DNA of 60,794 nt, the filler included, from Dimargaris cristalligena (Eukaryota): assembly GCA_003614675.1 (NCBI GenBank). It is 13 parts of 13 records of this genome, joined end to end, with 100 filler letters (N's around TTAATTAATTAA, not from the genome) between each part and the next. Parts side by side here need not be neighbours in the genome. Positions count along the whole stretch, not along the records: positions 51,624 to 56,162 come from ML003758.1; positions 56,263 to 60,794 come from ML003759.1; 11 more parts are not named here. One strand, written 5' to 3'. A program made the translations under genes and the position numbers. Position 1 is the first letter of the stretch, and every line of letters starts with the position of its first letter. This document shows positions 22,942-60,794 of this stretch, piece by piece. Below the pieces are notes generated by a model. The model did no database searches, was not told where the DNA came from, and saw only the letters and a list, made by a program, of their open reading frames with translations.

Positions 22942-23159
22942 TTATTTATTTAATATAGTTATTCTTCCAGGTACATACATAAGTATAATAAAAATAAATA
23001 AATTGAAAAAAAAAATATATATTAAGTAATTTAATTCTGGTACTATAATGGAATTTGTGAGTTATGCTATACATATAAAATTTTATAAAAAAAAAATTCG
23101 AAAACAACACATTTATGTGTTGTTTTTAAAATAAATAATTATATTTATTTCGATTTTGA

Positions 23160-23205
23160 CCTCTTTAGGTAAATACATGCGGGAGTTCAAATCTCCCTCG
23201 GGCTT
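23160..23205 (+). pseudogene. 3' relic of a tRNA, possibly Leu(TAG)
   Basis: T arm GGGAG-TTCAAAT-CTCCC with upstream TTAGG; no matching 5' half seen. Confidence 0.4.
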
Positions 23206-23396
23206 CCGGCATCTGAAATAAATTTAAATCTATTATCTAATTAATTTTTATAATTTAATATTTTTATTTAAATTTTTATAAAAGTTTTATATTATATCTT
23301 TTTAAAAAATATCTCCATATAGATGTTTTTTTATTTTTATTTTATAATTTTTTATAAATTTTTAAATATGTATTTTTTAATTTTTTTAAGAGGTAT

Positions 23397-23466
23397 GACC
23401 TCTTCATCTAGTGGTTAGGATGGTATCTTTTCACGATACATACGCTGGTTCAAATCCAGTAGGGGT
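23397..23466 (+). tRNA. trnE: Mitochondrial-type tRNA-Glu(TTC), last bases cut by contig edge
   Basis: GACCTCT..AGGGGT acceptor, anticodon arm GTATC-TTTTCAC-GATAC, GCTGG-TTCAAAT-CCAGT. Confidence 0.92.
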
Positions 23467-23571
23467 NNNNNNNNNNNNNNNNNNNNNNNNNNNNNNNNNN
23501 NNNNNNNNNNTTAATTAATTAANNNNNNNNNNNNNNNNNNNNNNNNNNNNNNNNNNNNNNNNNNNNGCTCA

Positions 23572-26500: not shown

Positions 26501-28157
26501 TCTTCCAGTTACCATCAGAGTCTGCCAGACCCTAACAGCTATCTGGTTAGCCTATTTACCTATACCTTAGTCTTAGTAGTATTCTTCACCTAGACCTCCC
26601 TCTAGAGTTGTCCCCAGTATATATATCCAGGCCCCATTAGGACTAGTTAGATTCCTTAGCTTTATCCTAACCCCCTAGTTTACCCTAATAAACCCTATTT
26701 ATTCCCACCTCCCCTATACTGACTAGTAAGTGTGTCTGCTACATATCCCTTGCCTATATCTACACTAGAGCCTTTATTAGTTAGTACTATACCTATACCT
26801 GATATTAGTGACCTACTTAGCTAAACCCAAGCCCCATTAACTATTTGAAGCCTATCCTTGGGACTCTTGATGGACTAAGAGTGGTAAACCTGGGCAATAG
26901 TGAACTTACCATATTTTTACCTACTTTTATTTTTTATCTATTTTTTGTACTTATCAGAAGTACGCCCCTGATGAGTATAGTCATTTTTCCTCCATTTTGA
27001 TTAGTATAGTATTTTTTCTATTAGTATATTATATACCCTTAACTATACTGCACCCTTGCCCCTGACTAGACTGTACCCCTGCATTCAAACTGCCCCTGGC
27101 CTGAATGTACCCCTATTCAAAGTGCAGTTAAAAAATACTTCCTCCCTTTCCCTTTTTCCTTCTATTGTTTCATATTAAATTTATTGGTTACCCAAGTATT
27201 ACTTATTCTTTGTGATGACTAATATTATTATCTGGGAACTCCCCTCCCTTTCTCTATTATTTTTCTATCTTTTCATTTAGGCTTCCCCTTTTGAGTATAA
27301 ATATTCTGTTAAAGAATATGTTCCTATGTGTTCTTTATCCTATCCTATTTTCATCTAATTACATTAGTTTATTATATTATTATGAGATCATTCATGTTAG
27401 CCACTTATATTTCACCCCACAGAAAATTAAAGTTCAATAAAACTAACTACCTAGAGGTACCTACTGTCCTCTAGCTGCTTTCTTCCCTTACTTCCAGTTT
27501 TATTTCCTTTAAGTCCTTAGTATTCCAACATATTCCCCCTTACTGCTACCTCTTGGAACAGCAAGTCTATCATTACCTTTCCCTTCTTATTATCTATTTT
27601 TTCAAATAAAATTCAGTTTTTAAGGATTTGACTTCAGTTCTTTACAACTGCACTTTTCAATTATTTAATGAATGTATAATGGAAGTATAAATGACTAGTT
27701 AATACAAATACAGAGATAGCTTTGTCTGTATCTGTGAATTAAAATCTCACCCATGTAGGAATATACCACCATACTTGCCAAGTAGTTGGACTTAACTGTG
27801 CTATTATCTAATAGTAGTATGGTGGTTTAGAAAGGTTTCTGAGTGATACACCATGAAACTCTTATGATAGATGTGGCTCACTCAGTGGGTGTCCCAGTCC
27901 CATGGGCCATCTGAGCATGCAAATTAACTGACAATGGAATTATCATTGAGGTGGATTATGTGTCTGGAGCTACCCTCAAAACTGTGTCAGCATCACTGAA
28001 AAGTGATAAGCCAGATTTCATAGGCATGTAGGTGTGCAATACTATGGATTGTTTACAAACATGTGTACTGTCTGTGGTGAACTTACCACATTTTTTACCT
28101 ACTTTTATTTTTTATCTATTTTTCGCACTTATCGGAAGTATGCCCCTGACGAGTGAA
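23572..28157. repeat. 880-bp inverted duplication (23572-24451 vs 27278-28157)
   Basis: Arms are reverse complements in all stretches compared by eye. Confidence 0.92.
25435..26019 (+). mobile_element. LTR family A, full-length solo LTR (~580 bp); second copy at 26319-26899
   Basis: TGTCAGCCC...GGGTAACA termini; internal TATATATAAC followed by AATAAA. Confidence 0.8.
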
Positions 28158-28262
28158 GAAGCNNNNNNNNNNNNNNNNNNNNNNNNNNNNNNNNNNNNNN
28201 NNNNNNTTAATTAATTAANNNNNNNNNNNNNNNNNNNNNNNNNNNNNNNNNNNNNNNNNNNN

Positions 28263-31466: not shown

Positions 31467-33392
31467 GATGGTAAATTTGACGAGTTGGCCGTCTGTTTGA
31501 CTTAAAGGTAATATAGATGGCTGAGGTTATAAAAATAGCAAGATACTATTGTATATTAAAAATAATAATACTCAGGAGCGATAGCGTATTGGTAGAAGAC
31601 ACAATGAATTTCATAAGATTATTATTTCATGACAAAATCGGAATCAGTACTAGCAGAGTGATAAGAACGGATAGGTTGAAATCCTAGAAAGTGATTTCAC
31701 TGACATTTTATATTGTACCCGCTCACCCTCTATAAAGCACCTGTGGAACTCAGCTATTAAGCTTCACTGTAGCCACGCTGAATCCAATGAACACCAATGA
31801 CTAATGCCATATTAAAAACAGGTAAATTGGAATGGCCCAAGTCACAAATATCCATCTTCAAGTTTAACCGAAACGCCACGAAATTCAGCTTAATCCCAAC
31901 AACTGAATGTGCATGCGACTCAGTTGGCGGGTCCTGGAAATACGCTCATTAACAAACCACAATGTCCAACCGCCCTCCTTCGCACTGTAAATGAGTTAAC
32001 CCCACAGGATCTTCAAACAAACAGTCAGTGAGGGCGGGGGAAGGATTCTCCCTATTCTCTTTTACCAATCAATACCGAGACTGAACATGTGGGAAATGGC
32101 CATTGCCATTGGAAACGCTTATAACCAAGGCCTAATGCAGAAAATTCAGTAGGCACATCTTCGCGCCTCCCCAATACAGAACGAAATTTGAAACTGGTTA
32201 GAAATGCCCACTCCCAGCTTGATCCAAAAATGTTCGTTTGGGTGGGTGATTCATCGAGTTATTTTCTTCCATTTATAACTGGGTAAGAAACAATTGAGGA
32301 GAAATACCCTAAGTACATAAAGTGGAGTATCCAGCAAATTGTCTTGTCAGAATGAGCCAGATGGTCATAGGGTATAGGTGCATTTTAGACTGCTCCTGGC
32401 ATTTGGTATAATTGTGGTGCTTCACTAGTCTAGTATCAATTAGAGTCCACACAGGTAGGCACCCTGAGTGCCCAGTACTAGGTGTCATCTCAACCAGTAT
32501 GTTGGGCAAAACAAGATAACAATTAGAGATGCATTAAAGTATAGGTGCTTAGGCTACAGCACTGGTCAGGGGTGGGTATAGAGTGGCTTTATTAGAACAC
32601 ACCTGGTAGGAATAAGTTAAGGAATGAGTAGATTGTAATCCCCAGGGAGAATATGTAAGTAAGGACACCAATGGAGGACTATCCAAGAAAAGCAAAGCAA
32701 ATATTGATATTTGGCTCTGGATCCCAGTTACAGCTAAACTAGCCAACACACTGCATTTACATTATACCTGTGGTGAACTTACCACATTTTTTCCTACTTT
32801 TATTTTTTATCTATTTTTCGCACTTATCAGAAGTATGCCCCTGATGAGTGAATGNNNNNNNNNNNNNNNNNNNNNNNNNNNNNNNNNNNNNNNNNNNNTT
32901 AATTAATTAANNNNNNNNNNNNNNNNNNNNNNNNNNNNNNNNNNNNNNNNNNNNAAGATGTTGATTCGCAAGAAATAAATAGTTTATCGATAAAGTTTTT
33001 CAAAAGATGCTGAAGATGTTGAAAGTTGAATGTTGAATGTTGAAGATGTTGATTCGCAAGAAATAAATAGTGAATGGATGACTTCATGTTCTTGACAAAC
33101 TCATAAGATTTTGAATGTTGATTCGCAACTTTGCAAGAAAGAAAGATAAATGGTTTATCGATAAAAATTTTCAAATGATGCTGAAGATGTTGAATGTTGA
33201 TTCTGGACGCTGAAGATGTTGAATGTTGAATGTTGAATGTTCATCTTTTCAATCTTTTCAATCTTTTCTATCTTATCTTTCGAAGCATTCTATCCATTCT
33301 TTTCTTTCTTTCTTTCGACAAACTCTTTTCGTTCTTCCCATTCCTTTCGAAACATTCTATCCGTTCTTTCGCCAAATTGTGACAATTCCGCA

Positions 33393-33569
33393 CCGCGGTT
33401 ATGGGACTCGTCGCTTTCCATGGTTCCGTTTCAGACGCTTTCCTTTCCTTACCGTGGTAAGGTGACCGGTCGTGTCCCGTGGTTCCGTTTCCTTACCGTG
33501 GTTATGGGACTCGTCGCTTCCCATGGTTCCATGGTTCTGTTTTAGACGCTGTCCTTTCGTTACCGTGGT
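33393..33569. repeat. Imperfect ~65-75-bp direct repeat pair; (TGTTGAA)n microrepeats upstream at 32955-33240
   Basis: CCG.GGTTATGGGACTCGTCGCTT.CCATGGTTCC..TT.AGACGCT.TCCTTTC.TTACCGTGGT occurs twice. Confidence 0.75.
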
Positions 33570-33942
33570 CATATATTAGTCTTTTTTATCAATTTTTTTT
33601 TGTAATGACAGTCAATACGTTACCATGTTCACATGATTTCATTCTTTCGTTCTTTTTTGAAAAATAACAAAAACAACAAAAATAATATATTCAATTCAAA
33701 CATGGAAGAAAACGATTGTGACGTTTTCGCATCTACATCAGCATTCAACATCTAGCGGTGGGACATTTCGGTTCTTCTACATTACGAATCTTCTTGGTCG
33801 CTCCGAACAAAGGTCAGTCGATAAACTACTTCTTTTTTGTCTATTCTGAGTGCTGATGAAATCCGTTTAATGCTGATGAAAATGGCAGGTAGTATTCAAC
33901 ATTCAACATCTATCAGAACATGAAATTCATAAAGGCGTCTAG

Positions 33943-34059
33943 CGGTCACACTGATGACGTATTTTGTGTTGTTTTCTGGTTAATACTCTATATATGTTCC
34001 GGGGTCATTTATTGAAGAGTAACCAGAAAACAGTACAAAATACGTCACCAGTGTCACCG
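33943..34059. repeat. Long hairpin: 40-bp arms with 4 mismatches
   Basis: CGGTCACACTGATGACGTATTTTGTGTTGTTTTCTGGTTA pairs with TAACCAGAAAACAGTACAAAATACGTCACCAGTGTCACCG. Confidence 0.9.
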
Positions 34060-34094
34060 ATTAATGTTGCCTTTTTATGTGATTTTTTTTTTAC

Positions 34095-36668
34095 TTATTT
34101 CTCCTCTTTGTCTTCCTTCAAACAATAACCTTTCCAATATGAACTACGATATTTGTCTCTCTCAACAAATCTACTTTCGTCCAAAAGTTCCTTCATTTTT
34201 TCGAGAAACTTTACTTCGCCGATTTTTGTCTTTTGATTCCGTTCAGATTCATACTTTGTCATGTATCGCTTGTAAGCTTCCACTTTGCTCACAGTATTTG
34301 TCAAATCCTGTGTCTTCTCAATAGACATTTCCACGAATTCTTTTACTGTGTCCTGCTCGTTAATCAAACTTTCTTTCCACTTTTTGCATTCTTTTGGGAT
34401 GTGTCGAAAATTTGTGATCCAATAGTTTTTCAGTCCTTCCAAAGCCCACATCAAAAAATAAGGTCTCCATTGATCGAGCTTCTCGTCGATTTCCTCAGCT
34501 CGATACGTGTAATTTTCATGTTGGTGTTTAAGAAACTGTTCCTCATCTTTGTAAAATCGTGAACGGTGATGGATTATGAGCATTCTGTCCAGAAGAGCGC
34601 TATCTGTGAAATCAAACTGCGGAAAGTTCGCATCGTTGAATAAGAGCAACATTTTTGTTCCCCAAGTGAACTTGGCTATTTTGTCTGAACGAAAGTGTCG
34701 GCCTTCGAACATACTGTTGCCTCCATTTCGATCTTTCAGTTCCTGGTTGTCGAGCATTCTTTTGGGATCCAATTCTTCAAAGCAAGCAACACGAATCCCT
34801 TGATATGCAATCATTCCTGCACTGTGTGAATCCACTGTCTCATTGTGGTTGTCTGTTTTGTAAATAAGTGCGTTTGAACCTTTGCGTGCGTAATCACCTA
34901 ACGCCTTGTTAACGAGTTTCGCTATTGTGCTTTTGCCGTTGTGACCCTTTCTTTTGTCCGTAAACATGGCAAAGATCTTTGCTGGATGGTCACCCAACAA
35001 GCAATAGCCAAGATATCGCTGAACTATTTCCCTTTCATCATCAACGGGATAGATTTGTCGAATGAATGTTTGAAATTCTGTCTTCAAATTTTCGTCGATT
35101 TCCGATGGATTTTCTGGATAACTGTAACCCACAGTTTTCGATATCATATCTCCGGAGGTTCCTTTTCGAAAACTGCAAGTTTTCAAATCAATGACTCCAT
35201 TGTCCAATCCTAGTAAACGAACATTCGCATCGAGATCTGTTGCGAATTTTTCATTATATAGTACGAATCCAACTGATTTAGTTATATTTTCCAAATTTTT
35301 CTGTCGTTTGAGATATCTTAACCCCTTCTTGACGTTTAAGTATTGATCTTTCGTTGCTTGCTTATCTTTTTTGGGACCATCTTTCATCTCAAGAAAATGC
35401 ATTCTTTGACTGAGATAAGTACCCATTTGTTCCAATATTCCGACAAGAAGGGAGTCCAGGCAATTTCCAACTTTTTCTAAGCTGACCTCTGACCATTTCC
35501 CGTTTTCGAATCCAAAGAATTGGCGATTCTTTGTCCAAAACAGGACGCCCCGATAAATTTTCCCGAATAGACTAGCATAATCCCGATCTGCTTCGGGGCA
35601 ATCGATGATTTTTTTCAACGTGCTCAATTCTTTCATTTCCATCATTTCAAAATGGCATTTATCGGAATAGTTTTTCACCATAAACGTCTCCGGGACTATC
35701 TGAACACAGTACCAATTGTTGGAATCGTGTTTGTGTTCGAGGCAGATTTTACAATTCACATCTCGACAAGCATCGAAATTAAAGCCATGTTCTGTGTGGT
35801 TGATCATTTTCAATTTTTCAAAGCCAAATTGCTCAACCAATCGTTTCTCCACTGTATTCCAATCGGTGACAAGATTCGATAAACTCATCGGAGGGACGTT
35901 AATGTTAAGATAGTTGATGTAATTATTTGTTTGGTTCATCTCTTTTTCATTGAATTGCATTGCCATTGCGGATTCATCACCGATTGTTTCAATATGGCAT
36001 GTCTTTATCCTTTTGTTTGATTCACCATAATGTGTTTTCTTAACTATTGACACCGCGGGAGAGGGTTTCTGGGCTACAACCAGCTCCTTTTCGTCTCCAT
36101 ACATGTATTGAGCGAGAAAAGCGCGTTTTTCAGATTGGTGAGTGATTGCACTGAGGGGTCTTTTGTCGAAATCGAACTTGTGCGCATTGATGCACCCCAA
36201 GCATTGATTTTTTCCATAAGGAGCGGTGTCAAGTTCCGCAGGTTTTTCATTTGAAAAAGTGTTCACGATGTGTTTTTTTATGTCTGCTACTTTTGCTTTG
36301 TAACCTTTGGTGTAAGCTCGCAGACTTATTACGTGATATGCATTTTTTTTTCCCTCGTCTTTGATCTTGTATCCCGAACGTTCAGCATATGCCGTTTCCG
36401 CGCCAGGAAGAAGCTTTTCTATAACTTGTTGGAATTTTAAAAGCTGCTCTTGAATCATTTCCTCCGTGGCTTCTTTTTCACATTTCACATCCCAATCAAA
36501 GTACGGCCTGACTATTGGATTCTCTTCCAAAAATTCATTGTACATGAACCCCACTCGTTTCTCAGAGATTTTTTCGAATTCTTTTGCTGTCAGGATAACT
36601 CGATTTTTGTCGCGTAGCCCATGTAACTGTTTGATAAACGTCATTCTCTGTTCTTTGTGATCATCCAT
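34095..36668 (-). CDS. D5-like primase-helicase (AEP + Zn cluster + SF3 helicase), viral type
   Basis: PYFDWD, DTAPYGKNQ, CKICLEHKHDSNN, LDANVRLLGLDNGVIDL (D5_N), Walker A GHNGKST, Walker B ACFEE, motif C LLFND; intronless 857 aa. Confidence 0.92.
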   Translation of the reverse strand: MDDHKEQRMTFIKQLHGLRDKNRVILTAKEFEKISEKRVGFMYNEFLEENPIVRPYFDWDVKCEKEATEEMIQEQLLKFQQVIEKLLPGAETAYAERSGYKIKDEGKKNAYHVISLRAYTKGYKAKVADIKKHIVNTFSNEKPAELDTAPYGKNQCLGCINAHKFDFDKRPLSAITHQSEKRAFLAQYMYGDEKELVVAQKPSPAVSIVKKTHYGESNKRIKTCHIETIGDESAMAMQFNEKEMNQTNNYINYLNINVPPMSLSNLVTDWNTVEKRLVEQFGFEKLKMINHTEHGFNFDACRDVNCKICLEHKHDSNNWYCVQIVPETFMVKNYSDKCHFEMMEMKELSTLKKIIDCPEADRDYASLFGKIYRGVLFWTKNRQFFGFENGKWSEVSLEKVGNCLDSLLVGILEQMGTYLSQRMHFLEMKDGPKKDKQATKDQYLNVKKGLRYLKRQKNLENITKSVGFVLYNEKFATDLDANVRLLGLDNGVIDLKTCSFRKGTSGDMISKTVGYSYPENPSEIDENLKTEFQTFIRQIYPVDDEREIVQRYLGYCLLGDHPAKIFAMFTDKRKGHNGKSTIAKLVNKALGDYARKGSNALIYKTDNHNETVDSHSAGMIAYQGIRVACFEELDPKRMLDNQELKDRNGGNSMFEGRHFRSDKIAKFTWGTKMLLLFNDANFPQFDFTDSALLDRMLIIHHRSRFYKDEEQFLKHQHENYTYRAEEIDEKLDQWRPYFLMWALEGLKNYWITNFRHIPKECKKWKESLINEQDTVKEFVEMSIEKTQDLTNTVSKVEAYKRYMTKYESERNQKTKIGEVKFLEKMKELLDESRFVERDKYRSSYWKGYCLKEDKEEK

Positions 36669-36820
36669 TTTGGTCTTCTATAGACCTCTACTTTTACAAA
36701 TGATATATTTTCACTGCCTCAGACGCACCTGTCTATTTATAACCAAAAGCATTCGCATCATTCTATAACAAATTTCGAAATTGAAGATTCGAAATCTACA
36801 TCTTTTCATTCTACAAGATC

Positions 36821-37327
36821 ATGAATCTATCGATAAATCAAGACACGAAGAGCTCTGGCATTGTCGACCAAAATGTTGACAATGTCGACCAAAATGTTGA
36901 ACTAAATGTTGACAATCTCGACCAAAATGGAAAAGATTCGATTTCGATCTCCGCAATCACGACCCAACAGCAACCTACACAAACAAAAACAAAAAATGTT
37001 GATTTCGAGCTCTTCGTTTCTAGAATGTATAAGAAAAATTCTTTGACACCCATCGCTGAAATCACACAAAGAAATTATGTCAAATCACTTAAACGCCTCG
37101 AATCGATTGGCGCATTGCAGTACGTTTTCCAACCGTTGAAATGCATCGAAATCATTTCCGAAAACAACGGTGAAAAATCTGTTCGCAATTATGCCATGGC
37201 TATTGTCAAATTTCCTTGCGTCCTTGAAGTTGAAGAAATGAGTCACATTTGGCCTGATAACAACGATTTCTCTTTTCCTAAAGTCAATCGCATTTTGGGT
37301 CACTATCGGCTATTCTTGTTATCTTGA
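36821..37327 (+). CDS. Hypothetical viral-type protein with VDQNVDN repeats; weak resemblance to an integrase N-terminal (SAM-like) domain
   Basis: 168-aa ORF divergent from the helicase; IAEITQRNYVKSLKRL; GAAATTGA about 40 nt upstream. Confidence 0.5.
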   Translation: MNLSINQDTKSSGIVDQNVDNVDQNVELNVDNLDQNGKDSISISAITTQQQPTQTKTKNVDFELFVSRMYKKNSLTPIAEITQRNYVKSLKRLESIGALQYVFQPLKCIEIISENNGEKSVRNYAMAIVKFPCVLEVEEMSHIWPDNNDFSFPKVNRILGHYRLFLLS

Positions 37328-37645
37328 TCTCTTGATCCATGTATGATGTAGCTAACCAATTCGAACCCCACTGTTTTGGCCTCTTCATGTTTGCTATTTT
37401 TTTCCTCTGTTTATGTTCTCCCTGCTCGTCATGTTCCTGATTCATCAAGTGGTTTCTCTTTCATTTCATTCATTAGATTCTTTCGAATTCTTTTCATTCT
37501 TTCCAATCATAGAAGGATAGAATCCTTTCTTTTCTTTCGACAAATNNNNNNNNNNNNNNNNNNNNNNNNNNNNNNNNNNNNNNNNNNNNTTAATTAATTA
37601 ANNNNNNNNNNNNNNNNNNNNNNNNNNNNNNNNNNNNNNNNNNNN

Positions 37646-46300: not shown

Positions 46301-49096
46301 CTTACTAATGACTTATTAGGTCCCGTGGGGGAGGAGAGCGATGAATATACTGCTATCCCCCAGACCAAGATATTATCAATAAGGAGACAGGGGTGTGAAA
46401 GGGTAGAAAATAGTTACGTTTGGTAAATCTCCTAAACTGAAATCCGTAGATCCGGCCGGCGACTATACCTTTGAAGAAGGTGCACATTAAATAAGATTAA
46501 TAGGGCAGGTCGGGCGAGTGTTGGTCGTAGTTCACCACATTTTTCCGTGTAGACCATGCACGCTGATTCCTACCTCGGCAAACAACCCTCCTCCCCGGTT
46601 CATTTTAAATTTGCCTTGACGGCTTGGGACGAACAAAAATAACCGTGTAATTACTGCTAATTAGCCGGACAGCCCCTGGGTAGTAGGCATGGAACATTAG
46701 CTCATCAACGGAGGATGACCGACCTCATTTCTAATATTATATGCCTACGGGGAGATTAAGTTAAGCAATCAATACAACGGCCATTACCTATTGTTCCGAA
46801 CTCGCCCGCGGGGTACTAACTTTTCGTTGATATGGGTGAACTTCAACCCAACTGTATAAGATTTTACACAATATATGTATGGGNNNNNNNNNNNNNNNNN
46901 NNNNNNNNNNNNNNNNNNNNNNNNNNNTTAATTAATTAANNNNNNNNNNNNNNNNNNNNNNNNNNNNNNNNNNNNNNNNNNNNTTGGGGGAGTCGGGGGG
47001 CCGATCGTGTGAAGAAGGGAAAATCCCTCCACAATCTCATGCTGGGCTTATGCCCGTTTTTCTGGCAGGATGGAGTGTTCTGATTTGTAGTCTGAAGCCT
47101 TGCAGAGTGCGGCCCCCGGTTGCTTATGGGGCCGCAAGGAATAATAGAATAAAATATAGTTTTTAATATAAGCATTGTGTTAATTTGCTTGAATAGAAAA
47201 AACTGATTGATAAATGTAGGGAAAACCAATACCTTTTATACGCGCTATTATTATGAAAAAATCACTAGTGGTGCACGGTTGGAAATGGCAACTGTGCAAA
47301 ACAAATGGGTTAGGGCAGCTTCGTTTAACAAAAGAAAGGGCAGGAGAACAATAAGTGGATCCATAGTCGATACTGAACAAGCCTGAAAGTGCCTTGCACC
47401 TTCACCGTGCCCTTTGTTAATTATTAGACTTGAAATTGTGAAGTTTTCAAAAAGGAAGATGATTCTTGGCTAGTCTACTTTTTTTTTGAAGACTGCGGCA
47501 TATCCTTTACGGGATACTATATATGTTTTGTATGCCTTGTCTATGGATTAGTCAATCACATGGTCTCGATAATTTCGACCATGCCCATGGCAATGATGGA
47601 TACCATTTGAAATCCTTGCCAAGAATTGGCCACATTGAATCTATAACCAGAAGGCTTCTCATACCCCTTCCATTGTATTGTACCAGGAGGACCCCCGTGT
47701 TTGTAGACAAAGACTATTGTATTGGTTCAAGAAACTATCCGTAGTCCCAAATTTTCCTATTTACTACATTCTCGATTATATAACTACTCTTACCAGCCTA
47801 TTGTCCCCATTTTCATTTGGCTGTACAATACTGACATTTCATTTTTGGACCGTCATTATGGCAATTTGCTAATTTTTGCCACCGAAATGCTACTACTGTA
47901 GGTTTCTGTAATATTTTAGCACTCATTTACTTAGCCATTTCAATGCACTGCCTTTTTAATTCGTGTTTTCAAGTAACAATTCTTTAATCTGAAATTGACT
48001 TATAGCCACCTGTCTGCCAATATCACCTATTTTTAAGTCAAATGGGCTGTGGTCCTTCTTCGTGGATATTCTTATTTACCGATGTCCTCGTCTAATTATT
48101 TACACTGTGCCATACAGACAAGTGGACAATTTCTACTTATTCTAGCCCGTAAATCTCTTAAAGAATTATTTCAAAAGTAAGCCGCAGGTGTTTAATGGAT
48201 CATGACCCTTGACCTTGGTCTACAAGCTCCATTAGCTCTGAAATTATTTTCTTTGGATTTCTTTACTTCACTTTGACTGGGTGCTGGCACATTTAAATGA
48301 ATCGTGTCATTGTTCTTACGAATACTGCAGTAGCAGGTACTTAGAATGTTAATTTTTATTAAATGTCAGTAAACCAATTTTTTTATATACTTTAAATATA
48401 TAAAAAGAATGATGAAATTCGGACCAGATGTACGTTATAAAAGCTATATGCAAGGGGAACTACACGGTAAATTCATTTTTAACGAGTAATATTTACAACA
48501 TCCAACAGATCTTCTGTTTTACAACCTGGTTGATTCAACCCCATGAATATCCTGTTAATATTTGCGTGGTATCTAAATACGATTCACAAAGGTAGCCCAG
48601 TTCTGCCAGCCTGGGGAATCAAATTACAATCTTCTAATTTACCCTTGTTTAGCGCAGTTCAATGCTAGCAGTGAAAATATTTAACGGATATACCAATTGG
48701 TAGTTTTACAAAGCAAGTTGTAGTTAAATACATATGTACTGCCATGGGCAGGTACGGTTTTCTCCTTCTATGGGAATAACCAACCGTTTCCTCTCGTCAC
48801 ATGATGCCAACACACACTGAACAAACAGCGGCTACTCCAAATGCTAATTTGGAAACCACGCGTCTAGTTAATCCTATTTCCAACCCTGCCTATTTCCGGT
48901 CCTACTGACTAAATGGTTACTTCCACATCATTTGCATTCATAATTCCAGCTGAGTTGGAAATAATATCCTCTCATGTTGGAATGAAGTGGGCAGTGTTGA
49001 AGCTTATCCCTATCCTTATCCTTATCTGGTTACCATGAATGCCTCAGTGGATCTGAGGTATTTCCGCCTTCCATTTTATTTAGCTGTTTTGGTATG

Positions 49097-49677
49097 TGTT
49101 GCCCAGGTTAACCACTCTTAGTCCATCAAGAGTCCCGAGGATAGGCTTCCAACAGTAGGCAGGGCTTAGGCTCAGCTAAGCAGGCTACTAACATTAGGGT
49201 AGTTATAGTACTAACTAATAAAGGATAAGTGCAGGTAAATGCAAGGGATGTATAGTAGGCACACTTACTGGTTAGTATGAGGGAGTGAGTATATATAGAG
49301 TTTATTGAGGTAAACTAGGGGGTAATAATAAGCTAAGGAATCAAACTGGTCCCAGTGGGGCCTAGTTGTATATATACAGGTACTACTCCAGAGGGAGGTT
49401 CCCAGGGAAATGCTACTAAGACTAAGGTATAGGTAGATAAAGAGTCTGACCAGATGGCTTCACATTGGGAAGACTCTCATGGGAACTGGAAGAGTCTTGG
49501 ATCAGCAGGTTGAGTGTTCTTATGCAAAGCATTGGGGCTGGAAGGAGAAGGGTTATATAATAAAAGATGACCCCATAGTACTGGGGGTGACTATGGGAGG
49601 GTTAATATGGTACTATAAGGCCTAATAAGGATGGATAATTGATAAGTCCAGATTAAGTCAGATTAGGAGGGCCGATA
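49097..49677 (-). mobile_element. LTR family A solo LTR
   Basis: Full-length reverse copy; flanks GGTATG / GGCATG may be a target-site duplication with one C>T. Confidence 0.8.
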
Positions 49678-50536
49678 GGCATGATCTATTAAATAAACAA
49701 AAATTGGAATATAAAAGGGGTGCTATACCCAGCTACATTCAACTATTTAGAATAAAAAAATTATTGGATAACATAATTAAAGGCTAACATCATTTAACCT
49801 GCACTTTGGCAGGCACCTCCCAGGTTAGGCCTAACTGGAGGCTGGTTGATTTGCACAACCCCAGCTGGCCTCAGAAATTTTGGCCTGGGGGTCATGCACA
49901 ATGTTATCCCTCAATACAAAGGAGGGATATATGGAGCCACCCTTTTGAGGGTGGCTAACACTGATTTGTCCCTGTCTTGCTACAGGGGGAGGCCTGGAGT
50001 AGTTTTTTATAGTGGCCACCAGAAAGAGGAATGAGGGCCTTAGTGTGGCCATTTGTAGGAGGGTACAGGAGAAAGGTTAGAAGAGTAAATATGTGAATAT
50101 GGCAAGAAATTTGGAAGTAACTGCTGGAGAGATGATTATTAATAGCTATCCAGGATACAAGGTTAATGTGTAGACATTGGGGATAGCATCCACTTGCCTA
50201 TTTATAATTGGCTGGTGATTTTATTAATCAGATGCAGTGTAAGTAAGACCTATCTGTCTCTTCAAAGTGTACTACTTTCATGTGGCAATTTTATAAATTT
50301 AATAGGTAAACAATACCTTAATTGGTGATGAATATTAGGAATTGGTCTTGGAATGGCTATCATATCCCAGTACTCCCCTTGTTGCCATGTTAAGTAACTT
50401 TATGAATATGTAATACAATGGTCATTGTATTATAGTTAGGTGTAATCAACTGGTGTTATGGTATAAGGTACCCTACCTACAGCACTTGGTCCTGGGATAG
50501 GGCCATAGCTGGGGATTTTGACCAAAGGCTTCTAAA

Positions 50537-51111
50537 TGTTGGACCTTTTAATCTGACTTACTCTAGACACAGTCTCCATTAGGCCTTATAGAACCATATT
50601 AACCTTCCTATAGTCACCCCTGGTACTATGGGATCACCCTATATTATATAACTATTCCCCTTCCAGACTCCTTGTTTTGCACTAATCACTCTGGGGCTGA
50701 TCCAAAGACTCTTCTGGTTACTATTAGAGTCTTCCAAGTCCTCACAGCTATCCAGTTGGCCTATTTATCTTATCCTATCCTTAATAATATCCTCCTTTAG
50801 GGACCTCCCTCTGGAGTCATCCCCCATATATATAACCAGGCCCCATTGGGACCAGTTCAACTGGCCAGCCTATTTCTTACCCCCTAGTTTATCCTAATAA
50901 AGTATATATATGCTTACCCCCCTTGTATTGACTAGTAAGTGTGCTCACTGTATATCCCTTACTTATACTTACATCTAGTAGCCTTTATTAGTTAGTACTA
51001 TGCCCCCCAACCTAACACTAAGACCTGCTTAGTCAAGCCCAAGCCCCATCTGCTGTTAAACACCTATCCTTGGGACTCTTGATGGACTAAGAGTGGTTAA
51101 CCTGGGCAACA
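50537..51111 (+). mobile_element. LTR family A solo LTR
   Basis: TGTTGGACC...GGGCAACA, aligns with 25435-26019. Confidence 0.8.
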
Positions 51112-51929
51112 TAGTGCAAAAGAGTATGTAATAAATTTGCTTTTGAGACCACTTATATCTTGTCTAAAGATATCAGTAGTAGCCCCACATTTTCCGCAGC
51201 CTACCCCACTAAACTGATTAGAGCCCCTTATAACACTCCCTCATTACATTAAATGCAGTCAATCCTCTTATACATAGCCATATTTGATTTCAAAAAAAAA
51301 AAAAAAAAGCTTCCAAGCCTTGGTCAGCCAAAAAAAAACAACAACAACGAATAGTGATACCGTTACCCGGCTATTTGAGTAGATACTTGATACCCTATCG
51401 ACATAAAATTGGGGATAAAGATATACTGAAATGAAATGAAATTTATTACTAAGCGAGAAAAAAATACGCTTTGTTATGGGTGAGTTGAGGAGAATTCGAG
51501 TTATTAATAGCCACTCATGTACTNNNNNNNNNNNNNNNNNNNNNNNNNNNNNNNNNNNNNNNNNNNNTTAATTAATTAANNNNNNNNNNNNNNNNNNNNN
51601 NNNNNNNNNNNNNNNNNNNNNNNAAATGTACGAATATCTGGGAGTCCGTAAACAGGTTTAAAGTTAACTTGCCTGATCAGACATTGGGTGGCCCATTTTA
51701 CTAAGAACCACTACCCCTTCACTATGTGAGCAGCTTCAAACAATACATCACGTTAGATAGACTGCAGACAACTAGGTGTGGGAAACCCATGGCGACAGAA
51801 CGCAACCTCATCTTAAATGTTTATTTTTGCAGTAAACCTCGATTGATTTCTTAACATTTATATAATCCATTCCCAACCATCTCCAGAGATACACAAAACT
51901 AATGGCAAGCATCCGGTCTTGATTTAAGT

Positions 51930-55890: not shown

Positions 55891-56614
55891 AATTGGTTGT
55901 TGGAAATATAAATTCAAAGGTAAATGCAAGTACCTTTAATTACAACTATAAAGATATAAAGAAGAGAGAAAGAGCTGCAAGGGACAAGGCTAAATGCCCA
56001 CAGTAGGTTTTATTGATTTGGATAATAGCAGTTCTAATGATTAGGAAAAAGTCCCAGGTAAAGAAGGATATAGGTAAAGTTTAATATAATTATATAATAA
56101 ATTGGATGAAAGTTCCAATTGCTATAGTGGTATTATTTTTTTATTAAAACAGAAGATAGTGTNNNNNNNNNNNNNNNNNNNNNNNNNNNNNNNNNNNNNN
56201 NNNNNNTTAATTAATTAANNNNNNNNNNNNNNNNNNNNNNNNNNNNNNNNNNNNNNNNNNNNTGGAACGCAACATGAAGATAAAAACGTCAACGTGGTCA
56301 CAGAGCAGCTTGAACGAAAAGATAATTTTTGCAAACGAATTCATGACACAGGCCGAAAGTATATATGATCGGTGCTTGGATGTTATTCTTGAATTCCTTC
56401 CTGGGAATATTTTTATGCATTTGTAAAATTAGATCAAACAACATTAGTCAAAAAAACAAATTATATTCAAAAAACCAAACAGTATTCGAAAAAACATTAA
56501 AACAAAAAACAAAAAATAAAACCCAAAAAAAGAACATCAAAAAACCGAATTACAAAATTTAAAACACAGCGCAAGAAATGCAGAAAAAAGTTAAATGCGG
56601 ATGGGAATTTTTCG

Positions 56615-58006
56615 TCACTGGACACCAGTCAAGGTTGGAAAATGCGTTTCGTACGCATCCGCGGTCGGAGAAAGAACAGTCAAACCTTCTCTGCGATTTT
56701 GTGAATTCTTTGGAGCGCGCCTTCCGCCCTTGGCAGTGTGACCCGTTAAATGGTCACGGTTGACAACGCGAGTCGCATCTTCCATCTCGATGTCGTCAAA
56801 CTGATTCACAATTTGTTTTGAGTTGAATTGTTCGAGGTTGCTCAAAAACCGCAGGATCGGATCAAGGACATGAACAGATTGCTTTTGAATAAATGTTTCA
56901 ACATGCTCAATTCTGATTGGCTCTCGGTTCACGAGATATATTCCGTGAAGGCAATATAAAAAGTCGCGCATTGGATGGTTCCTCGGAAGTTTGTACCGTT
57001 TCAAAATGTAAGTATCCCTATACACATACATTGTGTACTTTCTGAGAGATACAAGCAATCTGTCGATGATATCGAAGACAGCATTTGATCCAAAATAGTT
57101 TCGAAAAAGTGTCCGTTCTTCTACTGAACATGCCAAATAAGATAGATGCATTGCTGGTAAGTTTTTTCGCAAGGAACTGGCAATTTTGAACCATTCATAG
57201 TCAACTTTCCATCGAATGGTGGGAGAATCGCCAGTTGAGTTTTTCGTAAATATGATACCGCGGCGAATGTGCATTTCCTGATTTTTAAGATTGCTTCTGC
57301 ATTCTTCTGCAGACAGTGAGTGTGGACTTCCGCACCATGATAGCCCGTGTTGAGAAATAGAAGAAGTTTCAACAAATGTTCCGATATGACGAGATCCAAC
57401 ATAAACAAGTTGTGGAACTCGATGAGGAATCACAAGTTGGTTTTCTGGATGTAGCAAAATAAAACTGTGCGTCTCGTCTTTTGCAAGATCGCGCTCGAAA
57501 AGATTAAAAGGTGCCTCAGAAACCGTTTCACAGAGAAGTCTGTAAAATGTTTTCGAAGATGACCATCTCGCACGAGTTGCGTCGATGCACCGATTCGTTG
57601 ACACAACCCATTGATCGTCGATATATGAAACCCTCAGAACGGTTCCATCTTCAGCTTCTTCGAGAGCATATGTATCGGGAGTATCAAGGTAGGACATTGC
57701 TTGGTCAATGTCGACGTCGCAAATGTTGTCCATGCCACGAGCTACTATTTCAAATGTTTTCTTTCGAAGAATTATCCCGTTGCATTCGAGAACAACGGGA
57801 TCAGACATATCAGAAAGTTCCGTTGGGTGGATCAGGAAAAGGTCTGGGCGCTTCCTATCTAGTGAATATCTCAAATAAAACGGCGACCTGTGAAGAACTT
57901 GATTAAAAAGGTCGCGAAACGTTTTCTCTTTATTCACGTCACCAACGACTATTGACGGGTTGCCGTTTTTAATCCATGTCGAAATCAAATTTGAGAGTGC
58001 AGCCAT
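56615..58006 (-). CDS. T4 Rnl1-like RNA-ligase-fold protein of large DNA viruses, catalytic residues substituted
   Basis: LECNGIILRKKTFEIVARG, EEAEDGTVLRV..WVVST, SFILLHPENQLV, RRGIIF, RWKVDYEWF. Confidence 0.75.
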   Translation of the reverse strand: MAALSNLISTWIKNGNPSIVVGDVNKEKTFRDLFNQVLHRSPFYLRYSLDRKRPDLFLIHPTELSDMSDPVVLECNGIILRKKTFEIVARGMDNICDVDIDQAMSYLDTPDTYALEEAEDGTVLRVSYIDDQWVVSTNRCIDATRARWSSSKTFYRLLCETVSEAPFNLFERDLAKDETHSFILLHPENQLVIPHRVPQLVYVGSRHIGTFVETSSISQHGLSWCGSPHSLSAEECRSNLKNQEMHIRRGIIFTKNSTGDSPTIRWKVDYEWFKIASSLRKNLPAMHLSYLACSVEERTLFRNYFGSNAVFDIIDRLLVSLRKYTMYVYRDTYILKRYKLPRNHPMRDFLYCLHGIYLVNREPIRIEHVETFIQKQSVHVLDPILRFLSNLEQFNSKQIVNQFDDIEMEDATRVVNRDHLTGHTAKGGRRAPKNSQNRREGLTVLSPTADAYETHFPTLTGVQ

Positions 58007-58220
58007 TTTTCACAATTTTCAAATTTGCAATATCTATAATTGAAAGGAACAAGCACGAACACCTTTTATATAAAGTGGTTCGGCCTTTCCACTTTGGTAT
58101 TATCGATAGATTTTCTATTATTTTGTCACAATTGATCAATATTCGAAATTGTTGATTTCGTTTTTGAAGTAAATTTACTTGCGCATTTTCCTTCTCGACA
58201 TAAAGAAAACAATTTGATTA

Positions 58221-58442
58221 ATGAACCCAATAATTATGTTACTATTTTTCTTCATGTTGGCAATATTTGTCATTACTGTAATATCTACAAACCACATTAA
58301 AAGCAAATACATAGCGAATGAGATAGCTCGCACAAAATCAAATTACCAACTAGATCCAGTTCCAGTTGGAAGTGTTCCCCACAAAGTGTTTTATGCCATG
58401 TTCAACGATGACGACACTTTGCAATTGGGTTTGATGCCGTAA
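58221..58442 (+). CDS. Small single-pass membrane protein
   Basis: N-terminal hydrophobic helix then ..QLDPVPV..VFYAMF; recalls small membrane proteins of Mimiviridae-like viruses (unverified). Confidence 0.6.
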   Translation: MNPIIMLLFFFMLAIFVITVISTNHIKSKYIANEIARTKSNYQLDPVPVGSVPHKVFYAMFNDDDTLQLGLMP

Positions 58443-58565
58443 CTCGATATTTTCAATATTGATAATACATTATGCAGATACATAATTTACAACTGATAAT
58501 TGATTAGAATATTTCTTTTTGACTGTCTATAACTAACACAAACAACGCAGAAAGTAAAAAAAACA

Positions 58566-58982
58566 ATGTCGTCTCTAGGAAAAACGAGGAATAAAAAACG
58601 AACCAAACGTAAAGTAAAATATCCAACTTTAAAAAGATCAACAAAATCTGTAAAACTGTCAAAAATATCAATAAAACGATCAAAGAAGTCAGGAAAACGA
58701 TCAAGAAAATCGCTATCCTTAACAGGTGGTGGACTTAAAAAAATTTTGCAGTTCGAAGTTGCATTTAAAGAAGCAAACAAATCTTTCCCGGTTTCACGTG
58801 CACAGTTGAAAGAAATGTACAAATTAATAAAAAAGGAAGAAGAAGATTTAAATCTCGAAGATAATCAAGAGGAAAAAGACGCATATCCAGACATAGATCA
58901 AGTTATCGAATTAGGAAAGAAATGGTCTCAGAAAAACAAAGGAGTGAGCACAAGAACATTGGATCTTCTCCGTAGATTGTAA
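58566..58982 (+). CDS. Protein with K/R/S-rich basic N-half, TGGG linker and acidic C-half
   Basis: 138-aa ORF with AAACAATG start; its stop abuts the PP1 stop. Confidence 0.75.
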   Translation: MSSLGKTRNKKRTKRKVKYPTLKRSTKSVKLSKISIKRSKKSGKRSRKSLSLTGGGLKKILQFEVAFKEANKSFPVSRAQLKEMYKLIKKEEEDLNLEDNQEEKDAYPDIDQVIELGKKWSQKNKGVSTRTLDLLRRL

Positions 58983-58983
58983 A

Positions 58984-59895
58984 TCACTTTTTCTTTTTTT
59001 CTTTTGGCTTCAATGTTTTTACCGAACACAACATGTTTGCATCTATCGAAAGCATTCCAGCGCAGTTATCGAACTGCCCGTCGTAATTGGGTGCAGAAAA
59101 AACAGTAATTAGCTTTCGATTGGCGAAAAATTCACATCCGTCTTCGACCACCTGATGTGCCCTGCAAACCAAGTCAATATCGTTTTCACGACAAAACCTT
59201 TCCACAACATCCGCCCCAAAGACCCAAGACGCCCCTCGATCGTTGGGCAGAAAACCTGATATATTCTTTTCTGGATCAGCCCATAAAAGATCACACATGA
59301 GCCCTTCTTCTGGTATCGGACAAGGCCTTCGGATTAGATCCACTTGGGATATTTTCAATAAATCTGGAGACAATCCACCATGACAGCAAAAAACCTTGTC
59401 GCTTACCAATGCTGCAAGCGGCATGTAATTAAAGCAATCTACGAACGTTTTCCATACTTTCATGTTGTATTTTCTTTTGCACTCGTCCGTAAAACCATAA
59501 ACTCGATTTAACTGGCTATCCTCGTGATTGCCTCTCAGAAGAAATATCGAATCAGGGAATTTCAACTTTAACGCAAATAGTAGACAAATGGTTTCGACAG
59601 AATGTTGCCCTCTGTCAACATAATCTCCAAGAAAAAGATATCTCGATTTTGGAGGATATCCGTTCATTTCAAAAATACGAAGCAAATCAAAAAATTGACC
59701 GTGAGTGTCTCCGCATATTATGAACGGCGCCGATAATCTCAACAATGTTTTTTCTCTTGCAAAAACGTTCATTATGGTTTTTGTGAGGAGAACGACGTGA
59801 TCTTGTGGCAAAGGAGTCACCGTTCCCGGAAACTTTTCCCTTTCCGAAACCAAATGATTTAAGGTGGACACTACGACCGTTTCTATTTCCGCCAT
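58984..59895 (-). CDS. Ser/Thr protein phosphatase PP1 catalytic subunit, divergent; likely start MAEIET at 59895, 303 aa
   Basis: GDTHGQ, GDYVDRG, LRGNHE, HGGLSP, DLLWADP, RAHQVVEDG, FSAPNY; intronless. Confidence 0.96.
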   Translation of the reverse strand: MAEIETVVVSTLNHLVSEREKFPGTVTPLPQDHVVLLTKTIMNVFAREKTLLRLSAPFIICGDTHGQFFDLLRIFEMNGYPPKSRYLFLGDYVDRGQHSVETICLLFALKLKFPDSIFLLRGNHEDSQLNRVYGFTDECKRKYNMKVWKTFVDCFNYMPLAALVSDKVFCCHGGLSPDLLKISQVDLIRRPCPIPEEGLMCDLLWADPEKNISGFLPNDRGASWVFGADVVERFCRENDIDLVCRAHQVVEDGCEFFANRKLITVFSAPNYDGQFDNCAGMLSIDANMLCSVKTLKPKEKKKK

Positions 59896-60003
59896 CTGAT
59901 CTAGAAATACAATGATTTCCTTTACGCTATTATTGCAAAAAAAAGCTTGCTCCAAACACATAAAGCATTATCTTCGCAACTGAAATCTGTTATTGTTAAA
60001 ACG

Positions 60004-60606
60004 TCACAGACGATATTTTGTACATAGAATAGCGTTTCCTGCGATAACTCCTGTTACAAAGATTGCCATGAAGCACATTAAAGTTCTATCATTAAGATGA
60101 CCAAAAAAGTTGGTCAATATTTCGGCCAGGATCGCTGCTGTCTCTTTGCTTTTCAAAATATTTTTGTCATCTTGTTCCATGCATGTCTTCCATGCATCGC
60201 ACGTTGATTCCAATGCTGGAGGGGCATCGATATGTGAGCAACGGTTGTTGAAATAGTCTCGGCTGCATTTCACAATGTCCCGCATCAGAACGTGAGATTG
60301 TTTGTCCAACTGCTTTTGAAGATCTCCCTCCAATATTTGTATAATAGTCGAGATTCCATAAAACAACATGACAACGATAGAAACATTGAATACTAGTTGC
60401 GCATATGCAAGGAACAATCCCGGAATCATGGACAGAATGTGAATATATTTCAAAAACAGTTGTTCGTCCTTTCTTGTAGAACCAATGCGTTTTGGTTTTT
60501 TTGTAACGGGAATCCATTCATTTTCTTTGTGGGTGTAAAATACATTTTTCAAAGTTGAACCTGATGAATGTGCTTTGTTATCAGACGGAAAAACAGCTAG
60601 TTCCAT
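60004..60606 (-). CDS. Brr6/Brl1-family nuclear envelope protein
   Basis: TM1 YAQLVFN.., luminal four-Cys pattern IVKCSRDYFNNRC..PPALESTCDAWKTCM, amphipathic ILAEILTNFF, TM2. Confidence 0.88.
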   Translation of the reverse strand: MELAVFPSDNKAHSSGSTLKNVFYTHKENEWIPVTKKPKRIGSTRKDEQLFLKYIHILSMIPGLFLAYAQLVFNVSIVVMLFYGISTIIQILEGDLQKQLDKQSHVLMRDIVKCSRDYFNNRCSHIDAPPALESTCDAWKTCMEQDDKNILKSKETAAILAEILTNFFGHLNDRTLMCFMAIFVTGVIAGNAILCTKYRL

Positions 60607-60794
60607 TTCACCACCGCTCTAGTACCAATCTTTTGATTGTTCCACTTAAACACGAAAATTGCGCATTCCATGTGACACTTATGGAAATCTTAAATGTAAA
60701 ATAAAACATGCTTCAATTTCAGAATAGATCCGGCACCCATGCAAAGACTAAGTGGGTGTTTAACAGCAAGCACATTCATCAGGTTCAACCAAAA

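Follow-up and report, generated by a model that had tools for sequence, protein, structure and literature searches.

A giant-virus-like contig encoding a short Brr6/Brl1-family protein beside a divergent PP1-type phosphatase

The contig and its Brr6/Brl1-family protein

The DNA analysed here (the window) is 60,794 bases long and consists of 13 contigs joined end to end, sorted by size from 4,618 down to 4,532 bp and separated by N44-TTAATTAATTAA-N44 spacers. As the window is a concatenation of small contigs, regions that adjoin in it are not physically linked. We describe the last of the 13 contigs, positions 56263-60794, which encodes a short membrane protein of the Brr6/Brl1 family next to a PP1-type phosphatase and looks to be derived from a giant virus rather than to be ordinary host DNA. 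An initial reading of the window, referred to below as the first-pass annotation, had delimited a giant-virus-like element here, and its coordinates match exactly this one separate contig of 4,532 bp. Five intact open reading frames (ORFs) with zero in-frame stops give a coding fraction of 0.80, and the intergenic gaps measure 214, 123, 1 and 42 bp; the tight packing of five intronless genes reported in the first-pass annotation is therefore confirmed. The same is true of its abutting stops, two convergent stop codons that end at 58982 and 58984. The contig and its genes are as follows.

56263..60794, no strand: giant-virus-like contig fragment (coding 80%, GC content 0.38, observed/expected CpG ratio 1.19)
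60004..60606, minus strand: 200-amino-acid short Brr6/Brl1-family membrane protein (Pfam PF10104, clade of 32 short proteins, AlphaFold2 model)
58984..59961, minus strand: 325-amino-acid divergent PP1-type Ser/Thr phosphatase (Metallophos, E-value 1.2e-46)
56615..58006, minus strand: 463-amino-acid Rnl1-like protein of a family found in giant-virus metagenome-assembled genomes, without the motif-I lysine
58566..58982, plus strand: 138-amino-acid hypothetical ORF, rich in Lys/Arg/Ser in its first half and acidic in its second
58221..58442, plus strand: 73-amino-acid hypothetical ORF with a hydrophobic N-terminal stretch

The assignment of the 200-residue protein to the Brr6/Brl1 family is solid. 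Its sequence matches the Pfam profile PF10104 (Brr6_like_C_C) with an E-value of 6.4e-31 and 107.3 bits, against a cut-off of 25, over residues 67-194 and profile positions 2-130 of 133. Structurally, members of the Brl1/Brr6 family have a luminal amphipathic helix, two membrane segments and an antiparallel helix bundle that is stabilised by disulfides and carries a PAL loop (hydrophobic-P-A-hydrophobic) at its tip (PMC13043894). The corresponding elements of the 200-residue protein, all encoded on the minus strand, are given here.

60325..60444, minus strand: first membrane segment, residues 55-94 (hydropathy; within helix 46-120 of the AlphaFold2 model)
60181..60267, minus strand: tip of the disulfide helix bundle, residues 114-142 (C-x8-C, 12 residues with P-P-A-L, C-x5-C)
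60097..60147, minus strand: amphipathic helix before the second membrane segment, residues 154-170 (AlphaFold2 model, helical wheel)
60016..60084, minus strand: second membrane segment, residues 175-197 (hydropathy; within helix 173-199 of the AlphaFold2 model)

The four luminal cysteines (Cys114, Cys123, Cys136 and Cys142) are invariant in 26 of 26 members of the short clade described below. They are spaced exactly as in the S. cerevisiae Brl1 motif given in a preprint, and would form the two disulfides of the family. The first-pass annotation had recognised a Brr6/Brl1 domain with two membrane segments and four luminal cysteines, and each of these elements is present: the 107-bit profile match, the segments at 55-94 and 175-197, and the cysteines at 114, 123, 136 and 142. 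The PAL loop is almost as constant, with P130 in 26/26, A131 in 25/26 and L, M or I at position 132 in 25/26 aligned sequences. The first loop position is more variable (Pro in 12/26, Ala in five, Leu in five and other residues in four), and the 200-residue protein itself reads P-P-A-L. Helix 154-170 places its hydrophobic residues at 140-320 degrees and its polar residues at 0-160 degrees, with a moment of 0.30, and its sequence is conserved across the short clade. As judged from the primary structure, the protein thus keeps every feature of the luminal fusion core of the family.

An AlphaFold2 model built from 26 sequences reached a mean pLDDT of 77, with helices at residues 46-120, 130-144, 154-170 and 173-199; the long helix 46-120 would correspond to the first membrane segment extending into the lumen. 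Searched against the PDB, the model gave zero fold matches at E <= 0.001. A complex prediction with four copies of residues 46-200 scored 0.05 (mark 0.32), which is evidence neither for nor against self-association. The N-terminal extension of the larger family members is absent. In yeast Brl1 this extension comprises 299 amino acids, is essential and contacts the Nic96 complex (PMC13043894), whereas only about 54 residues precede the first membrane segment here, or 59 residues up to Met60. The public gene model of this ORF starts at Met60 and has 141 amino acids. As the residues directly upstream of Met60 are conserved in relatives, we consider that model too short and take Met1 as the start.

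An exhaustive HMMER search for relatives, run over 1.84 billion cluster representatives, returned 1,070 matches at E <= 0.001. The nearest, at 81% identity, is annotated as 'Brl1/Brr6 domain-containing protein, partial [Blyttiomyces helicus]'. It is followed by some two dozen short proteins of 141-269 amino acids (31-49% identity, E 1e-40 to 1e-20) and, after a gap in E-value, by longer proteins of 300-600 amino acids (25-36% identity, E about 1e-19 or weaker). All 18 short-group clusters that were looked up are unnamed proteins from metagenome or run assemblies, on contigs of 613 to 109,658 bp. The named members of the long group come from fungi (Zancudomyces, Coemansia, Calcarisporiella), a euglenid and a syndinian. 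A scan of Joint Genome Institute (JGI) metagenome contigs confirmed three of 354 pattern matches, of which L004 and L005 encode the short type; L006, the weakest, encodes a 454-residue Brr6 with CAD and RabGAP genes nearby and is plainly cellular. The pattern scans used the smaller alignment A3, since A2 was too diverse.

An unrooted tree of 99 rows was calculated from the 200-residue protein, P0002, L004-L006 and P0038-P0131, with 55 weaker listed matches left out. It splits 32 short rows including the 200-residue protein (28 plus four other short proteins) from 67 rows of cellular type with SH-aLRT support of 97. A name or cellular neighbours are on record for only six of the latter rows plus L006. 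The comparison with fungal and protist Brr6/Brl1 proteins proposed in the first-pass annotation therefore places the protein outside the cellular-type group.

The PP1-type phosphatase and its linkage to the Brr6-like gene

The phosphatase gene adjoins the Brr6-like gene at a distance of 42 bp, and the first-pass annotation was right to name it PP1: besides the Metallophos match (E 1.2e-46), its best solved relatives are PP1 (414 bits), followed by PP2A (261 bits) and PP5 (237 bits). In an alignment to human PP1-gamma, whose start aligns with Met23, the GDxHG, GDxVDRG and GNHE motifs of the PPP phosphatases are intact. The residues of these motifs have roles in catalysis. The protein is accordingly predicted to be a divergent, catalytically intact PP1 subunit. 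Pfam detects no STPPase_N domain in it at E <= 0.1; the domain is present in the relative encoded on L004 (E 5e-08). In IMG/VR, 139 PP1-like relatives were confirmed, and 29 of the 80 retained are full-length, most of them on loci named GVMAG (giant-virus metagenome-assembled genome), with identities of 41-51%.

A PP1 tree was drawn from the best 120 of 7,999 matches, using the 24 unnamed environmental proteins of highest identity and 21 named cellular PP1s from chytrids, other fungi, animals, plants and protists. Further rows were the B. helicus paralogue, the protein from L004 and 21 IMG/VR PP1-like ORFs out of 29. Excluded were P0192-P0198 and P0200, which are multi-domain or fused proteins, all other listed matches, and eight IMG/VR rows that were truncated or nearly duplicate. 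A branch with SH-aLRT support of 97 separates all 21 cellular PP1s from the phosphatase of the contig. The latter pairs with the B. helicus paralogue (SH-aLRT 99) within a group of 27 rows, comprising these two, the 24 environmental proteins and L004. The IMG/VR proteins lie in other groups of the tree, also outside the cellular clade. The approximately unbiased (AU) test rejects a placement of the phosphatase and its paralogue with eight fungal PP1s (delta lnL 85, p 0.0002). Identity to the phosphatase is 55-58% for cellular PP1s and 57-65% for the environmental group, while cellular PP1s share 66-91% identity across kingdoms, with a median of 78%. A GNHE-D signature occurs in the phosphatase and 23 of 24 environmental clade members, and in 0 of 15 cellular PP1s. 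A further difference lies behind the APNY motif, where the phosphatase and 20 of 24 clade members have D or N and 12 of 15 cellular PP1s have a cysteine, presumably the microcystin-binding one.

The two genes also occur together elsewhere. The 2,594-bp metagenome contig L004 encodes a 325-residue PP1-like protein (59% identity) in divergent orientation beside a 215-residue Brr6-like protein (44% identity), with a SIMPL/DUF541 gene (260 amino acids, L004:1772-2554) next to the latter. On L005, a Brr6-like gene (54% identity) adjoins an intronless ABCG-type half-transporter of 689 amino acids (L005:473-2542). For larger contigs, linkage was deduced from equal sizes of the longest contigs across three independent protein searches. 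On this basis, homologues of the genes appear to share six environmental contigs and one B. helicus contig.

62,677 bp contig: Rnl1-like P0008, Brr6-like P0049, PP1-like P0220
94,951 bp contig: Rnl1-like P0019, Brr6-like P0050
321,979 bp contig: Rnl1-like P0028, PP1-like P0205
14,192 bp contig: Brr6-like P0038, PP1-like P0209
12,250 bp contig: Brr6-like P0045, PP1-like P0215
6,060 bp contig: Brr6-like P0055, PP1-like P0202
73,981 bp B. helicus contig: Rnl1-like P0003, PP1-like P0199

The Brr6-like and PP1 genes are co-inherited, and their co-occurrence is conserved. Neither the Brr6-like N-terminus nor the neighbouring 138-residue protein contains a canonical RVxF PP1-docking motif on inspection by eye.

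Proteins of B. helicus are the closest relatives of all three large ORFs, with 74%, 81% and 91% identity across the three genes, and represent a second diverged copy of all three in the same assembly. The contig is contained in six public sequencing runs from three studies with three organism labels. In two runs of one study, of four runs examined, it is fully covered at near-identity with a word depth of about 240-580. The run of the second study has a depth of about 5, and in that of the third, where the depth is about 3, the contig fills 20 of 30 bins; the runs were examined as Logan contigs of amplified or low-depth data, whose depths are not comparable with those of the host. Three runs extend beyond position 60779 with the same AT-rich sequence. 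This recurrence across six runs and three studies argues against a one-off contaminant. Runs X1 and X2 additionally contain low-depth contigs (3.6-12.9) with 20-76 differences over 180-660 bp, which fit the second diverged copy seen at the protein level.

Origin of the contig

The composition of the contig sets it apart from most of the window. It has 35 TCGA sites at a GC content of 0.38. Seven contigs of higher GC content (0.41-0.55) have CpG ratios of 0.72-0.86 and 10-26 TCGA sites, and three contigs without long ORFs have ratios of 0.16-0.32 and 1-6 sites. The first-pass annotation had contrasted abundant TCGA and CpG with GC-rich host genes and CpG-stripped repeats, and the ratios follow this order (1.19 against 0.72-0.86 and 0.16-0.32). 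Nameable ORFs on other contigs, at GC contents of 0.48-0.55, contain TPR, diacylglycerol kinase, SIS and DUF3712 domains, and these contigs look like ordinary eukaryotic genes. The three CpG-depleted contigs without long ORFs, at 1-4618 (ratio 0.31), 23567-28162 (0.16) and 46984-51523 (0.32), look like repeat DNA that has lost its CpG, unlike the virus-like contigs.

Besides the contig under study, two are CpG-rich, 32955-37545 (1.15, 44 TCGA sites) and 18863-23466 (1.22, 30 TCGA sites). The tetranucleotide signature of the former correlates with that of our contig at r 0.86, while the other 11 contigs range from -0.29 to 0.20. The tetranucleotide binning suggested in the first-pass annotation thus separates the contig from the host-like ones and groups it with this companion, listed here with its D5_N gene.

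32955..37545, no strand: companion contig of the same composition class (GC content 0.379, CpG ratio 1.15, 44 TCGA sites)
34095..36668, minus strand: 857-amino-acid D5_N primase-helicase-type protein (Pfam D5_N, E 6.6e-08)

The D5_N protein has zero close relatives in IMG/VR or the PDB by single-protein queries. A 10-mer, TTCGAAATTG, occurs exactly and once in an intergenic position of each virus-like contig (58142-58151 and 36774-36783), both times upstream of a small ORF; the search for shared upstream motifs covered 11 upstream regions. With one mismatch allowed, the motif is not enriched in the window: its 11 matches compare with an expectation of 6.0 +/- 2.4, and 11 were reached in 6 of 100 shuffles. 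The other CpG-rich contig, 18863-23466, has a GC content of 0.24, a CpG ratio of 1.22, 30 TCGA sites and zero stop-to-stop ORFs of at least 120 amino acids, and its tetranucleotide correlation with our contig is only 0.20.

The third large gene encodes a 463-residue protein which, as a single query, has no Pfam match at E <= 0.1, no PDB match at E <= 10 and zero relatives in IMG/VR. Its 35 relatives are nearly all unnamed; some lie on contigs of 95-372 kb, one is present in a Chytriomyces assembly, and three carry PF09511. A profile of 28 family members matches T4 RNA ligase 1 (E 0.007) over about 160 residues, with the invariant E-D-G of the family aligned to the K-E-D-G of the ligase. The column aligned with the lysine holds A in 17, S in nine, G in one and T in one of the 28 sequences, and zero Lys. 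In conventional ligases, this motif-I lysine forms the ligase-AMP intermediate. An RNA ligase fold is plausible for the family on the strength of this alignment; as the lysine is missing in 28 of 28 sequences, the family probably does not act as a conventional ligase. The Rnl1-like label of the first-pass annotation is therefore confirmed in part, through the family profile and the PF09511 carriers, while the protein taken singly gives no match. The nearest Atlas clusters are labelled 96%, 91% and 96% Viruses, most commonly Nucleocytoviricota, by automatic labels resting on few members. Three GVMAG contigs in IMG/VR encode relatives at 34-36% identity. One Rnl1-carrying GVMAG contig (L001:81-5533) also encodes full-length ATG9 (E 1.6e-117), HSP70 and NUDIX proteins.

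The two remaining ORFs are small. The 73-residue ORF has no match in Pfam, to which its search was limited, and the 138-residue ORF has only a sub-threshold one. The very basic N-terminal half of the latter may act in targeting, resembling a nuclear or nucleolar signal.

The giant-virus-like appearance of the contig follows from its composition, the tetranucleotide match to the D5_N contig, the Nucleocytoviricota-labelled Rnl1-like family found on GVMAGs, and the position of PP1 and the Brr6-like protein outside the cellular clades. In the tests run, neither of the outcomes that the first-pass annotation had named as refuting its viral reading was seen: the contig bins apart from the host-like contigs, and its genes nest in no cellular lineage. 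We consider a viral origin very probable. The contig is most probably most like the giant viruses recently described in zoosporic fungi, published as Mycodnaviridae, whose markers include an RNA ligase and a D5-like helicase-primase, and of which two related viruses were reported in one Allomyces host (PMC13533422). The described fungal giant viruses have a nuclear, integrated phase (PMC13533422), and the DNA studied here could be an integrated provirus or an episome. The main text of that paper mentions neither Blyttiomyces nor Brr6, Brl1 or phosphatase, although its supplements could list such a domain. A 2026 preprint names Blyttiomyces where it treats the genomes of giant viruses that infect fungi and have known hosts, apparently as a host label. 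The first-pass annotation had also proposed that a nucleocytovirus had captured these genes. The giant-virus-like origin stands, whereas a recent capture from this host does not: both proteins sit on long branches in old, virus-like environmental clades, and neither is the host copy.

Several observations weigh against a viral origin. Pfam searches found no major capsid protein, DNA polymerase B (PolB), A32 packaging ATPase or VLTF3 on the contig, on L004/L005 or in the flanks on L001-L003, and D5_N, which phages and other mobile elements have as well, is not exclusive to giant viruses. The family-named neighbours on L004 and L005, the ABCG-type transporter and SIMPL, are of cellular type. For the Brr6-like protein, 0 of 17 pattern matches in IMG/VR were confirmed, the single-protein scan was also empty, no Brr6-like ORF lies within 10 kb of the PP1-like genes at the 29 IMG/VR loci, and the viral protein models of BFVD gave zero fold matches at E <= 0.001. 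Co-occurrence on the large contigs is deduced from their equal size. Among the 18 short-clade clusters, only four match the size of a PP1 contig and two that of an Rnl1 contig; the 109,658-bp and 49,839-bp Brr6 contigs match neither list, and many of the remaining short-clade contigs are too small to hold a neighbouring gene. As to the trees, the 27-row viral-type PP1 group has an SH-aLRT support of 90, under the mark of 95, the group for the AU test was named after inspection of the tree, and most 'cellular-type' Brr6 rows are unnamed.

Much of this would also fit a cellular eukaryote with a compact genome that lives with the chytrid, for instance a parasite resembling rozellids or microsporidia or another gene-dense protist, with a fast-evolving Brr6 and PP1 of its own. 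PP1 itself is a cellular-type gene like the transporter and SIMPL, capsid, PolB and packaging ATPase genes are missing from the contigs read, the Brr6-like protein has no IMG/VR or BFVD counterpart, and some contigs with Rnl1 homologues reach 322-372 kb. Against such an organism speak the Rnl1-like protein, with nearest clusters labelled 91-96% Viruses and a family found on GVMAG contigs, and the D5_N primase-helicase on the co-binning contig. Two diverged copies (74-91% identity) in one assembly would be unusual for single-copy housekeeping genes, and Blyttiomyces is apparently labelled a giant-virus host in the preprint passage. We therefore assign the compact eukaryote a low probability. 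Lower still is that of ordinary Blyttiomyces genes on a poorly assembled AT-rich region of the fungal genome. The 81%-identical Brr6 paralogue and the PP1 paralogue are indeed named B. helicus proteins at NCBI, and four samples of a single study contain the contig at a high word depth. Yet its tetranucleotide signature is unlike that of 11 of the 12 other contigs, introns are absent at a CpG ratio of 1.19, and the closest relatives are all environmental. PP1 is excluded from the fungal PP1s and the Brr6-like protein from the cellular-type group, so that the PP1 tree, the AU test, the Brr6 tree and the tetranucleotide signature all contradict this explanation.

Possible functions and known counterparts

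The machinery of nuclear-membrane fusion was recently proposed to be Brl1/Brr6 in fungi and, in animals, CLCC1, which is reported as the metazoan functional equivalent. Brl1 and Brr6 are modelled as oligomeric rings that pair across the lumen via their PAL loops, and a preprint on yeast assigns to this loop the trans-luminal pairing of Brl1 with Brr6 between the two nuclear membranes. The amphipathic helix is required for fusing both membranes during pore insertion. Loss of CLCC1 blocks the nuclear egress of herpesviruses at the fusion step, and herpesviruses of fish and molluscs captured shortened CLCC1 copies three times.

With this background, we postulate that the viral Brr6-like protein would insert into the endoplasmic reticulum (ER) and nuclear envelope of the chytrid, where it could supply or boost, at the right time and place, the fusion of inner and outer nuclear membrane. 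Such fusion might let viral genomes or capsids pass an envelope that these hosts keep closed, and the co-inherited PP1 may act in this programme by dephosphorylating substrates at the envelope or pore, or others of host or viral origin. Among the functional readings, nuclear-envelope fusion takes the largest share, while remaining a tentative proposal with less than an even chance of being right. As an explanation of the whole, we regard as reasonably likely a fragment of a giant virus (Nucleocytoviricota) in a Blyttiomyces helicus-type chytrid assembly, encoding a minimal Brr6/Brl1 protein and a divergent PP1. More doubtful is the broader statement that a widespread giant-virus lineage, including chytrid viruses, encodes a minimal self-sufficient nuclear-membrane fusogen inherited with a viral PP1, the pair letting genomes or capsids cross the envelope of closed mitosis.

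A virus might also use the Brr6-like protein away from the nucleus, to shape, open or fuse ER-derived factory sheets for an inner virion membrane. Giant-virus inner membranes derive from the ER, and the protein consists of the membrane-active core only, with an N-terminus of 59 residues in place of the 299 residues by which Brl1 contacts the Nic96 complex. In simulations reported in a preprint, Brl1/Brr6 rings disorder lipids and mix bilayers, a general membrane activity. We nevertheless think a factory role unlikely, given that the PAL loop, which pairs nuclear membranes in yeast, is almost invariant in the clade, that the herpesvirus precedent of CLCC1 concerns nuclear egress, and that the described fungal giant viruses have a nuclear, integrated phase. 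There is a slighter chance that the short protein is an antagonist, which would pair through its PAL loop with host Brr6/Brl1 and block new pores and nucleocytoplasmic traffic. According to a preprint, amphipathic-helix and loop mutants of Brl1/Brr6 are dominant-negative in yeast when overexpressed, and the viral form does lack the N-terminal region that is essential in Brl1. However, loss of the amphipathic helix is what produces the dominant-negative effect, and the short protein keeps this helix with a clear hydrophobic face and a sequence conserved across the clade, which fits an active rather than a disabled protein.

Chytrid giant viruses, PPP phosphatases in giant-virus metagenome-assembled genomes and the herpesviral capture of CLCC1 are known already. 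A virus-encoded Brr6/Brl1 protein is new to print so far as the literature was searched: no paper was found that joins Brr6 or Brl1 with giant viruses or Nucleocytoviricota, although supplementary tables could list such a domain. The impression in the first-pass annotation that a viral Brl1 had not been described is consistent with this full-text search. The clade, with at least 32 clusters at 50% identity, indicates which parts selection keeps once the pore-targeting N-terminus is discarded, namely a membrane segment, the disulfide bundle, the PAL loop, the amphipathic helix and a second membrane segment. If nuclear-envelope fusion is its function, the short clade would supply a compact, naturally occurring protein for fusion assays and, as a natural 'minimal Brl1', a means of taking nuclear membrane fusion apart, and would suggest that fungal giant viruses manipulate the nuclear envelope in parallel to the herpesvirus capture of CLCC1. 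Because the Brr6-like gene is paired with a viral PP1 in a conserved way, a regulatory link between them suggests itself and can be tested. In addition, public annotations of 'fungal' Brl1/Brr6 and PP1-beta-like proteins in B. helicus can be flagged as probably viral.

The described Mycodnaviridae resemble the present case in that giant-virus DNA lies in chytrid or blastoclad assemblies, is gene-dense and has a composition unlike that of the host (PMC13533422); our 4.5-kb contig is a candidate member. The PP1-like phosphatases of GVMAGs in IMG/VR are, like ours, full-length and outside the cellular PP1 clade (29 loci), but they share 41-51% identity with it, belong to other tree groups and have no Brr6-like ORF within 10 kb. 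With cellular Brl1/Brr6, the 200-residue protein has in common the Pfam match, two membrane segments, the C-x8-C...C-x5-C spacing, the P-A-L tip and the amphipathic helix. It is distinguished from them by its length (200 against 300-600 amino acids), by its N-terminus (59 against 299 amino acids in Brl1), by a first loop position that in its clade is often not a bulky hydrophobic residue, by falling in another clade, with 25-36% identity to the cellular-type proteins, and by a gene that lies next to PP1 on virus-like DNA. The viral CLCC1 proteins (vCLCC1) of Malaco- and Alloherpesviridae offer a further parallel: they are virus-borne with trimmed termini and retain the disulfide cysteines and core, as does the present protein. 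They belong to a different family, with three membrane helices and a divergent loop, and to a different virus realm. Finally, the vCLCC1 proteins group with the genes of their hosts in three captures, whereas the short Brr6-like clade lies separate from every cellular sequence sampled, and a PP1 gene is linked to it.

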